DNA of 64,000 nt, taken from assembly GCF_003334315.1 (NCBI RefSeq), contig NZ_QOWR01000001.1. One strand, 5' to 3'. The notes under the pieces were generated by a model. The model was not told the DNA's origin, made no database searches, and worked only from the letters and a program-made list of their open reading frames with translations. Numbering within the stretch: the stretch's first letter is position 1; every line of letters starts with the position of its first letter. Source of the DNA: Escherichia coli (lineage in GTDB: Bacteria > Pseudomonadota > Gammaproteobacteria > Enterobacterales > Enterobacteriaceae). The translations under genes and the position numbers were made by a program. Below, piece by piece: positions 60,536 to 63,755 of this stretch.

Positions 60536-61645
60536 TCACTTGGCTGCCGTGGATGAACCGTCGGCGTGCCACTGGAAGACACCAAAATCAAATCCCTTAA
60601 GATCGCCTTTTTCATCCCAGTTCAGCGGCCCAATCACGGTGTTTGCACCGTTAGCTTTTAAATCTTTCACCAGCGCCAGCGGCTCATCGCTGCCAGTACG
60701 CTCAAGGGCAGTCGCCAGAGATTGCACCGCCGCGTAGGTGATCCAGACATAAGGCCCGGACGGATCTTTCTTGTCTGCTTTCAGCGCATCAACGATGCCC
60801 TGGTTTGCCGGATCCTGGTCATAGCGTTTTGGCATAGTGACCAACATGCCTTCGGCAGCATCACCGGCAATATTCGACAATGATGCGTTACCCACACCTT
60901 CCGGCCCCATAAACTGAGTTTTCAGGCCAACGGAACGGGCCTGGCGCAGCATCTGCCCCATTTCCGGGTAGTAACCGCCGTAGTAAACGAAGTCGATGTT
61001 TTCTTTTTTCAGGCGGGCGATCAGCGCGGAGAAATCTTTCTCCCCGGCGGTAATGCCGTCGAAGAAGACGACGTTGGCGTTAGCCGCTTTCAGCCCGTCC
61101 TGCACCGAACGCGCCAGCCCTTCGCCATACTGTTGTTTGTCGTGAATGATGGCGATGCGCTGGGGCTTCACCGTCTCAAGAATGTATTTTGCCGCCGTTG
61201 GCCCCTGGGAAGAGTCCAGCCCGGCAGTACGCATGATGTGTTGATAACCGCGTTGGGTCAGTTCCGGATTGGTCGCTCCCGGCGAGATCATCAGAATACC
61301 TTCATCTTCATAGATATCTGACGCAGGTTGAGTAGAAGAAGAACACAGATGACCAATAACGTATTTAATGCCGTCATTAACGATTTTGTTGGCGACCGCA
61401 ACGGCTTGTTTCGGGTCGCAGGCGTCGTCATATTCCACGCCAACCAGCTTATCGCCCTTAATTCCCCCTTTGGCATTAATGTCTTTAATTGCCTGACGCG
61501 CGCCGTTAAATTCCATATCGCCCCACTGGGCAATCGGGCCGGACATCGCGCCGACAACGGCGACTTTAATATCGTCAGCCATAGCGGTGTGTGAAATTGC
61601 CAGTGCAATCATCCCTGCGATGATAGTTTTCGCATTCCGTTTCAT
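60536..61645 (-). CDS. livK: Leucine-specific periplasmic binding protein LivK
   Basis: Track ORF 60536..61699; recognised start [23 protein letters not shown] (signal peptide). Confidence 0.95.
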
Positions 61646-62068
61646 AGTCAAAAATCCCCATTCGTGATGTTGTGTTGCTTTGTTTTTATGTGTTAACAAA
61701 TCAGACTGTTCTTTTTTTATACTGCACTGTTTTTGCCTGTTTGATTAAGGGTTTAGCGCAGTATTTTGTGATAATAGCGATTAAAATCCCTATTTTTCAG
61801 TCGATTAAGAACAGATAATATTCTGAATTTATTGATAGATAAACAGAAAAAAGCGCCGTTGTCAGCATAAAATAACGGCACAAAGGGCGGAATAATTCAC
61901 TACCATTCAGGGGATTATGCTGGATATTTTTCATTCTCTAATGTTTTAACTTTGTAATTATTGCTGTTAAAAAATTAATCACCTGCCAAAAGAAATAAAA
62001 AAGAGAAAGCCTCCGATTAAATTATTTCGCTACACTGGTTCCACTTTTGTGATTTACACGGGTTACCC

Positions 62069-62452
62069 ATGAAGCTGACCATCATTCGATTAGAAAACTT
62101 TAGCGACCAGGACCGGATTGACCTGCAAAAGATCTGGCCGGAGTATTCCCCTTCCTCTTTACAGGTTGACGATAACCACCGTATCTACGCCGCGCGTTTT
62201 AACGAGCGTCTGCTTGCGGCCGTGCGGGTAACCTTAAGCGGCACCGAGGGAGCACTGGATTCTCTACGCGTGCGGGAAGTCACCCGCCGTCGCGGTGTGG
62301 GGCAATATCTGCTGGAAGAGGTTTTGCGTAACAATCCTGGCGTTTCATGCTGGTGGATGGCGGATGCAGGCGTGGAAGATCGCGGTGCGATGACGGCGTT
62401 TATGCAGGCACTGGGATTTACGGCACAACAGGGCGGCTGGGAGAAGCGTTAA
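62069..62452 (+). CDS. panM: PanD maturation factor PanM/PanZ (GNAT-like)
   Basis: 127-aa ORF MKLTIIRLENFSDQDRIDLQKIWPEYSPSS... Confidence 0.9.
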   Translation: MKLTIIRLENFSDQDRIDLQKIWPEYSPSSLQVDDNHRIYAARFNERLLAAVRVTLSGTEGALDSLRVREVTRRRGVGQYLLEEVLRNNPGVSCWWMADAGVEDRGAMTAFMQALGFTAQQGGWEKR

Positions 62453-62493
62453 TCGTCAAGTTTGATTTCAAAAGTGATGACCAACGAGAAATT

Positions 62494-62593
62494 GCCTGAT
62501 GCGCTACGCTTATCAGGCCTACAATGTGTGCTGCAATTTACTGATTTCTTTGGATCTTGTAGGCCGGATAAGGCGTTTACGCCGCATCCGGCA
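62494..62593. repeat. BIME (two REP units) between panM and livJ
   Basis: GCCTGATGCGCTACGCTTATCAGGCCTAC ... GTAGGCCGGATAAGGCGTTTACGCCGCATCCGGCA. Confidence 0.85.
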
Positions 62594-62651
62594 TGAAGCA
62601 ACGTACTCGATATTAGCAATTTGGCGGCAACCCAAAGATGCCGATTAATGA

Positions 62652-63755
62652 TTACTTCGCATCGGTCGCCGTGCCGTTGGCGTGCCAGTCAAATACACCG
62701 AACTCAAAGCCTTTCAGGTCGCCTTTCTCATCCCACGTCAGCGGTCCCATTACGGTATCCACGGAGTTCGCTTTCAGGTATTTGGCGATTTCAGCCGGAT
62801 CGTCAGACTGATTCAGGCCCGCCTGCAAAGATTGCAGCGCGGCGTAGGTGGTCCAAACGAATGCGCCGCTTGGGTCCTGTTTTTTCGCTTTGATCGCATC
62901 AACAATGGGTTTGTTCGCCGGAACCTGATCGTAGTTCTTCGGCTTGGTCACCAGCAGCCCTTCCGCTGATTCGCCCGCAATGTTAGACAGCGAAACGTTA
63001 GCCACACCTTCCGGCCCCATAAACTGAGTTTTCAGCCCTGCCGCGCGTGCCTGACGCAGGATTTGCCCCATTTCCGGGTGATAACCGCCGTAGTAAACGA
63101 AGTCGATATTCTCTTTTTTCAGACGCGCCACCAGCGTTGAGAAATCTTTTTCCCCGGCGGTGATACCATCAAAGAACACCACGTTAGCATTGCCTTTCTT
63201 CAGGCCGTCCTGCACCGCTCGCGCCAGACCTTCGCCGTATTGCTGTTTGTCGTGAACGATAGCAATACGCTGCGGTTTCACTTTCTCAAGAATATATTTC
63301 GCCGCCGTCGGCCCCTGGTCGGAGTCCAGGCCGGTGGTGCGCAGGATCAGCTGATAGCTACGGGCGGTCAGCTCCGGCGCGGTTGCCGCTGGGGTGATCA
63401 TTAAAATGCCTTCGTCTTCGTAGATATCAGACGCAGGCTGCGTTGATGAAGAACAGAGGTGACCAATCACGTATTTAATGCCGTCGTTAACGACTTTGTT
63501 CGCCACCGCAACCGCCTGTTTCGGGTCACAGGCATCGTCATATTTTACGATTTGCAGTTTGTTGCCTTTAATGCCGCCTTTAGCGTTGATATCCGCAACC
63601 GCCTGCTCTGCGCCGGTAAACTCCTGGTCACCGTACTGGGCCACCGGACCGGACATTGCGCCCACGACCGCGACTTTAATATCTTCTGCCAGAGCCATAT
63701 TGCTGAATGCCAGCGCGATACATCCTGCCAGTAACGCTTTACCCTTTATGTTCAT
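62652..63755 (-). CDS. livJ: Leu/Ile/Val periplasmic binding protein LivJ
   Basis: Track ORF 62652..63812; recognised start [23 protein letters not shown]; close paralog of livK. Confidence 0.95.

Follow-up and report, generated by a model that had tools for sequence, protein, structure and literature searches.

Gene order, duplication and recombination at the livK-panM-livJ locus of Escherichia coli

The genes for two related periplasmic binding proteins, livK and livJ, lie on the same strand of a 64,000-nucleotide stretch of Escherichia coli DNA (assembly GCF_003334315.1, contig NZ_QOWR01000001.1; hereafter the window), and are separated by an unrelated gene, panM, and by a bacterial interspersed mosaic element (BIME) made of repetitive extragenic palindromic (REP) sequences. 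This arrangement raises the question of what was there first: a preliminary description, made from the sequence alone, had read it as a duplication that was later invaded by an unrelated gene and by repeats. Gene order across the Enterobacterales suggests a different history for panM, which most likely adjoined a single binding-protein gene before this gene was duplicated, while the BIME was inserted much later, where the 3' ends of panM and livJ converge, and varies between strains. As a whole, we are fairly confident of an explanation by a LIV-I/LS transport locus in which the duplication reached past panM, the BIME arrived late and the two copies recombine rarely. The features in question are:

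60536-61645, minus strand: livK, leucine-specific periplasmic binding protein (LS-BP), at the head of the livKHMGF operon; open reading frame (ORF), RefSeq annotation of strain CP53, NF011933, PDB 1USG
62069-62452, plus strand: panM (panZ, yhhK), activator of PanD maturation with a Gcn5-related N-acetyltransferase (GNAT) fold; NF033213, PDB 4CRY and 2K5T, RefSeq
62494-62592, no strand: BIME consisting of a Z-type REP, a 36-nt linker and a Y-type REP; inverted repeat, REP pattern matches
62652-63755, minus strand: livJ, Leu/Ile/Val periplasmic binding protein (LIV-BP), monocistronic; ORF, RefSeq, NF011933, PDB 1Z15

The region is the chromosomal livKHMGF - panM - BIME - livJ locus of E. coli, with rpoH next to it: positions 60300-64000 (3.7 kb) are 100% identical to the chromosome of E. 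coli CP53, for which RefSeq gives the order livH, livK, panM, livJ and then rpoH. The preliminary description correctly recognised livK and livJ as same-strand paralogs (ORFs, RefSeq annotation of CP53, 77% protein identity) with panM and a REP cluster (62494-62592) between them. The locus, the paralogy, the functions of the three proteins and the nature of the REP/BIME sequences are textbook knowledge: LivJ, with broad specificity for Leu/Ile/Val, and the leucine-specific LivK both feed the shared translocator LivHMGF and are encoded by a separate livJ gene and by the livKHMGF operon, respectively (PMC12708883, PMC6123439).

Gene order and the age of the duplication

LivK was used to scan one genome per species; the best 80 of 596 loci were kept, 78 loci were fetched, and LivK, LivJ, PanM, LivH and RpoH were located in each of them by tblastn. 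The order rpoH-livJ-panM-livK-livH, with panM on the opposite strand, is present in 50 loci, all from genera of the Enterobacteriaceae (Escherichia, Citrobacter, Kluyvera, Kosakonia, Enterobacter, Leclercia, Lelliottia, Siccibacter, Buttiauxella, Cedecea, Shimwellia, Mangrovibacter, Pluralibacter and others). Another 24 loci, from Enterobacterales outside the Enterobacteriaceae (Yersinia, Serratia, Ewingella, Hafnia, Pectobacterium, Dickeya, Brenneria, Lonsdalea, Erwinia, Pantoea and Mixta), have the order (rpoH)-panM-one binding protein-livH, and this single binding protein is 74-79% identical to LivJ and to LivK alike. A more distant relative (57% identity) has one binding-protein gene directly upstream of livHMGF homologues and no panM or rpoH in the vicinity. 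Two adjacent copies without panM between them were found in none of the 78 loci fetched.

As the single-copy loci already have panM upstream of the binding-protein gene, panM most likely predates the duplication, and livJ ended up beyond panM. The claim that panM invaded the duplication is not supported for the same reason, given the 24 loci outside the Enterobacteriaceae; of the preliminary reading, the later arrival of the repeats is what stands. The copies in the window have full-length homology on the same strand and are separated by 1006 bp that include an opposite-strand gene, and synteny suggests that livJ and livK were never directly adjacent. Overall, we regard it as likely that the duplication took place after panM had reached this site.

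The sequences in front of the two start codons are also related:

61646-61699, minus strand: segment of the livK 5' untranslated region (UTR), with the Shine-Dalgarno region GAATGGGGAT and the C/A-rich stretch GCAACACAACATCAC
63756-63812, minus strand: segment of the livJ 5' UTR, with the Shine-Dalgarno region GAATGGGGAT and the C/A-rich stretch CAACAACATCACAACACACG

Across genera, a (G/A)ATGGGGA Shine-Dalgarno region with a C/A-rich stretch before it is common to livJ, livK and the single-copy genes, indicating that the duplication included at least some 35 nt in front of the start codon; beyond this leader, no livJ/livK homology is left further upstream or downstream. The livJ and livK mRNAs are both among the targets that PMC9299463 gives for region R1 of the small RNA GcvB; taken together with the shared leader, this indicates that the duplication carried a post-transcriptional control site along.

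The ancestral locus would thus have had a single gene directly upstream of livH, with panM already divergent between this gene and rpoH. The gene was probably duplicated with its leader around the base of the family Enterobacteriaceae, and the simplest route would be a tandem duplication of a unit of panM plus binding-protein gene, followed by the loss of the rpoH-proximal panM. Both copies would have changed afterwards, with the operon-attached livK gaining Trp at mature position 18.

When a neighbour-joining tree is constructed from 24 LivJ, 24 LivK, 14 single-copy and 7 outgroup proteins (332 ungapped columns, 200 bootstraps), LivJ (98%) and LivK (100%), both across 24 genera, and the single-copy proteins (99.5%) are each monophyletic, and the three together form a group with 100% support. 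At 18 columns that are diagnostic for LivJ or LivK, the single-copy proteins side with LivJ at nine and with LivK at six, indicating that both copies carry derived states. Most pronounced is mature residue 18, which is Trp in 24/24 LivK proteins, Tyr in 24/24 LivJ and 14/14 single-copy proteins and Tyr or Phe in the outgroups; it is thus the operon-attached copy, livK, that has the derived pocket residue. Trp versus Tyr at residue 18 reportedly governs specificity, a result that is attributed to Magnusson et al. in 2004; a literature search on the role of Tyr18/Trp18 found nothing relevant. By this residue both proteins of the window have the predicted subtype, with Trp in LivK and Tyr in LivJ. 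We lean towards a joint scenario in which the duplication at the base of the Enterobacteriaceae leap-frogged panM, livK switched its specificity via Trp18, livJ kept the ancestral broad pocket and exchange between the copies persists at a low rate.

One locus in this set, L075, is labelled Hafnia psychrotolerans, but its binding protein is far from that of Hafnia alvei and nearly identical to that of Ewingella americana (L073; distance 0.01). The two loci are also nearest neighbours in a tree of LivHMGF, which suggests a problem with the taxonomic label or a transfer.

Several observations weigh against a duplication within the Enterobacterales. The order of the three lineages is a trichotomy (LivJ groups with the single-copy proteins in 55%, LivJ with LivK in 29% and LivK with the single-copy proteins in 16% of bootstraps), with mean distances of 0.254 between LivJ and LivK, 0.245 between LivJ and single-copy proteins and 0.268 between LivK and single-copy proteins. 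Unless both copies accelerated afterwards, such a duplication predicts single-copy proteins that are paraphyletic around LivJ and LivK, but they form one clade (99.5%). The LivHMGF tree, rooted on the distant locus L082, does not settle the order of the families (Enterobacteriaceae with Erwiniaceae: 39%), and the parsimony argument for single-copy paraphyly therefore leans on published phylogenomics: in the branching order that Adeolu et al. are said to have published in 2016, Erwiniaceae are sister to the Enterobacteriaceae and the single-copy families are paraphyletic. In the interval from rpoH to livJ, relaxed tblastn found no remnant of panM; the sample includes neither Morganellaceae nor Budviciaceae and, as only the best 80 of 596 loci were kept, genomes counted as single-copy may have a second, unlinked binding-protein copy.

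The near equidistance of the three lineages leaves the timing open from sequence alone, and it would suit a history in which an adjacent tandem livJ-livK pair arose in an early enterobacterial ancestor, panM was inserted later and the single-copy families lost livJ; that the single-copy gene occupies the livK position adjoining livH fits too. However, this requires an insertion plus at least one precise loss (several, if Erwiniaceae are sister as reportedly published) in place of one duplication, and it predicts the union of LivK with the single-copy proteins, which is the least supported grouping. The single-copy proteins also have Tyr18 like LivJ and agree with LivJ at more of the diagnostic residues, and no adjacent pair without panM was seen among the loci fetched; we consider this history unlikely. 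Alternatively, livJ could be a binding-protein gene that was horizontally acquired from another enterobacterial lineage and landed between rpoH and panM. The union of LivJ with the single-copy proteins in 55% of bootstraps, the retained Tyr18 and the distances of E. coli LivJ to the Dickeya and Erwinia proteins (0.199 and 0.215, versus 0.265 and 0.257 for LivK) are in line with such a transfer, and the livJ-panM and rpoH-livJ gaps take foreign genes in many genera. Yet LivJ falls outside the monophyletic single-copy clade, its leader shares the Shine-Dalgarno and C/A-rich core that precedes livK and the single-copy genes, and it has the same position in 50/50 Enterobacteriaceae loci: a transfer would have to date back as far as the family itself and could hardly be distinguished from a duplication, and we find it very improbable. 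A duplication that carried livJ past a resident panM remains our preferred history.

Divergence of the two copies and recombination between them

In global alignments, LivK and LivJ are identical at 283 of 369 residues (77%) and their genes at 842 of 1122 columns (75%, with gaps in 30 columns); the three longest stretches of exact nucleotide match measure 34, 26 and 17 nt, and a repeat finder returned the same homology at offsets of 2110-2116 nt. The high nucleotide identity that had been expected from the preliminary description was thus overstated: identity is moderate, and 75% is about the value expected from 77% protein identity with near-random third positions. Nonsynonymous and synonymous divergence (Nei-Gojobori) are dN = 0.156 and dS = 1.57, the minimum of dS in any 40-codon window along the genes is 0.77, and the same codon is used at 152 of the 283 identical residues. 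The synonymous sites are saturated, and the copies are old and without homogenisation in this strain; no recent conversion tract was found in its dS profile. As dS is saturated and codons differ, the DNA likeness is the product of protein conservation alone, and is kept by purifying selection on the protein and not by ongoing homogenisation.

The long runs of identical residues that had been pointed out are correct in part: a 13-letter peptide is common to both proteins, but the second peptide is shared only from VNDGIKY...GILMI (32 amino acids), its first quoted residue being Ile in LivK and Val in LivJ. The matching antisense ORFs that were taken as a sign of high nucleotide identity do exist (61328-61594 and 63459-63734, plus strand, with similar translations); they are shadows of conserved coding sequence.

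Ongoing gene conversion, with the locus as an active recombination hotspot and concerted evolution maintaining the likeness of the copies, would be a different explanation, and other genera offer some material for it. The longest exact run between livJ and livK ranges from 15 to 81 nt across genera, with 47-53 nt in loci L044, L023 and L029 and the maximum in Mangrovibacter plantisponsor, where other species average 81% identity and the sister species has 90%. In M. plantisponsor, this tract of livJ is 96% identical to the livK of the sister species and 91% to its livJ, which indicates conversion from livK to livJ. In E. coli, concerted evolution was rejected on the dS profile, which is saturated along the whole gene pair with a longest run of 34 nt. 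The tree never unites the LivJ of a species with its LivK, and 5426 complete E. coli genomes yielded one deletion fusion and no reciprocal junction; we therefore regard gene conversion as an extremely improbable source of the likeness.

The deletion fusion was found in strain EFF60 (assembly GCF_023373585.1). With a synthetic query that joins the 3' part of livK to the 5' part of livJ, EFF60 alone gives a full-length match in one piece; all other genomes match only 84% of it. In the EFF60 annotation, panM is gone (it is present in 5425/5426 E. coli genomes) and one 'frameshifted' livK pseudogene lies between livH and rpoH. A three-way alignment shows a hybrid that starts with the livJ promoter and 5' part and continues into the 3' part of livK; the switch point is inside a 15-nt block that is identical in livJ and livK, CCCGGAAATGGGGCA, beside the 26-nt identical run. 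A second deletion, of 23 bp and within the livJ-derived portion, causes the frameshift. Cells that lack PanM/PanZ, the activator of the PanD zymogen, are beta-alanine auxotrophs (PMC3496974); judged by its gene content, EFF60 should be one too. It speaks against giving the event much weight that the fusion is known from a single assembly. The reciprocal junction, that of a tandem duplication, is present in none of the 5426 genomes; its two top matches were rejected, as each joins two pieces across a normal locus, in one case where a record ends.

Recombination between livJ and livK is thus real but rare, and its sole E. coli product is a pseudogene. The minimal segment for RecA-dependent recombination is reportedly about 23-27 bp, a value that Shen and Huang are said to have given in 1986; at 25% overall divergence, livJ and livK have only two runs of that length (34 and 26 nt). 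The copies are, as proposed earlier, recombination substrates in principle, with one event in the 5426 genomes searched for deletions and fusions. Homeologous recombination between copies that are 25% diverged is therefore observable, at about one in 5000 genomes.

The spacer between panM and livJ

The convergent genes panM and livJ are separated by a short spacer that contains the BIME:

62453-62651, no strand: spacer from the panM stop to the livJ stop, 199 nt, a replaceable cassette (alignment with strain MDP9-27)

The element is a BIME, of a family with many extragenic copies dispersed over the genome. A Z-type REP lies on the plus strand (GCCTGATGCGCTACGCTTATCAGGCCTAC, 62494-62522) and a Y-type REP on the minus strand (GCCGGATGCGGCGTAAACGCCTTATCCGGCCTAC, 62559-62592), the two arms being 94% complementary and 32 nt apart. 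The REP pattern has eight matches in the window and none in 100 shuffles, and a BLAST search with the region finds a median of at least 38 matching places per E. coli genome. A BIME at 56640-56756 has the same Y-linker-Z build and has linker length and part of the linker sequence in common with the element at livJ. The linker matches the consensus for integration host factor (IHF), WATCAANNNNTTR, with one mismatch (read by eye), as a predicted site. A match to the REP-derived Rfam family naRNA4 is below threshold, and one Rfam match to a long non-coding RNA was dismissed as a chance match. Location between convergent 3' ends is typical for a BIME, and from what is known of REP elements its role is likely 3'-end stabilisation of transcripts or termination; the RNA of the panM-livJ spacer does not fold clearly more stably than shuffles (z = -1.84). 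Elsewhere in the window, REP pairs are at 12756-12834 and, as part of the BIME just named, at 56653-56743, and single REPs at 28452-28476 and 55024-55048.

Not all E. coli have this spacer. In strain MDP9-27, the 199 nt are replaced by an unalignable segment of 946 nt with the genes ataR and ataT (antitoxin and GNAT toxin; L002 3154-4099); the end of panM and ataT have 4 nt in common. This ataRT version is found in 1625/5426 complete E. coli genomes (30%), never more than once per genome, and the Escherichia loci L004-L006 have it as well; the strain of the window has the BIME version. At this site, the BIME is absent from other genera and, as the whole spacer is moreover replaced by ataRT in many E. 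coli genomes, the BIME is a late arrival.

Across genera of the Enterobacteriaceae, the livJ-panM gap varies from about 40 nt to 3 kb and holds varied accessory genes. Such gaps span the following positions of their loci:

L008: 2201-5197
L035: 2836-5195
L023: 2910-5203
L045: 3044-5227
L025: 4134-5188
L022: 4446-5196

The gap of Citrobacter amalonaticus encodes a LemA/MamQ-like protein and a large (680 amino acids) membrane protein, with a family match below the curated cut-off, and that of Superficieibacter a similar large membrane protein, also below the curated cut-off. L023 has a Fic-like protein (below the curated cut-off) and a 159-amino acid ORF without family match, and L045 a TetR-family regulator and a major facilitator superfamily (MFS) transporter, both below curated cut-offs. 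The gap looks like a small integration hotspot. The rpoH-livJ interval, too, holds extra genes in L013 (721-3621), L009, L011, L014 and L017-L020 (1.7-3.2 kb); in Kosakonia these are a putative regulator-like ORF of 508 amino acids and a putative aminotransferase-like ORF of 421 amino acids.

The locus in relation to known systems

All three proteins are readily identified. LivK and LivJ score 700 and 695.9 bits against NCBIfam NF011933 (cut-off 477 bits); LivK matches the 'leucine-specific binding protein' of PDB 1USG (E = 4.6e-232, residues 24-369) and LivJ the 'Leu/Ile/Val-binding protein' of PDB 1Z15 (E = 3e-183). According to the matches with these crystallised E. coli proteins, the signal peptide is cleavable and both mature chains begin at residue 24. 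panM is a plus-strand ORF of 127 codons that has no relation to the liv genes; it diverges from livK and converges with livJ, and its product scores 189.6 bits against the NCBIfam equivalog NF033213 (cut-off 68) and matches PanZ of PDB 4CRY (E = 1.7e-81) and, likewise, YhhK of 2K5T (E about 1e-81). Directly downstream of livK are the permease and ATPase genes livH, livM, livG and livF.

The 3.7-kb stretch has a match in 5426/5426 complete E. coli genomes, and 5417 of them hold at least 80% of it in one place; of the nine genomes without such a one-piece match, EFF60 alone is accounted for. panM was found in 5429 places in 5425 genomes, a few of which have it twice, and the livJ/livK probes in up to four places, which suggests larger segmental duplications of the region.

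Two hairpins were noticed on the minus strand. A G+C-rich one (CCGCCCG...CGGGCGG, 60505-60533) follows the livK stop, ahead of the livH start, and may set the ratio of LivK to LivHMGF, as a partial terminator or as a stabiliser between the cistrons; EFF60 has the same stem and a changed loop. A terminator-like hairpin followed by CTTTTTTC (61848-61882) lies some 200 nt ahead of the livK start, where it separates the start regions of panM and livK, and, by its sequence, could stop read-through from livJ or transcripts antisense to panM. In a promoter and terminator scan, such sites were not in excess over shuffles.

The comparative points are minor refinements of a known locus. The gene between the two paralogs is most likely older at its site than the duplication, which calls for caution before 'gene between two paralogs' is read as 'insertion'; of the two copies, it is the one in the operon that has the derived pocket residue; and the panM-livJ gap is a variable slot, filled with a BIME or ataRT in E. 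coli and with other cargo elsewhere.

The LIV-I/LS system of E. coli K-12 (livJ b3460, panM/yhhK, livKHMGF b3458-b3454; Adams et al. 1990, J Biol Chem 265:11436, as cited in PMC12708883 and PMC6123439) has the same locus, order, orientation and protein sequences, its structures 1USG/2LBP (LivK) and 1Z15/2LIV (LivJ) match, and nothing of substance differs. The LIV-I operons of Yersinia, Serratia, Erwinia and Pectobacterium likewise have a binding-protein gene directly upstream of livHMGF-type genes and a divergent panM upstream of it, but encode a single binding protein, which has Tyr at mature residue 18, and have no second copy beyond panM. In Pseudomonas, braC-braDEFG also has one binding-protein gene directly upstream of livHMGF-type permease and ATPase genes. 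The argT-hisJQMP locus of Salmonella and E. coli resembles livJ/livK in having two binding-protein paralogs of differing specificity for one translocator, one in the operon and the other separately transcribed just upstream, with REP elements in the locus; it differs in that its proteins are class II and bind polar amino acids, and its paralogs have no unrelated gene between them. BIME-1/RIP elements consist of a Y REP, an L linker with an IHF site and a Z1 REP, and the element between the convergent panM and livJ genes resembles them in its two unlike, inverted REPs that are about 34-36 nt apart.

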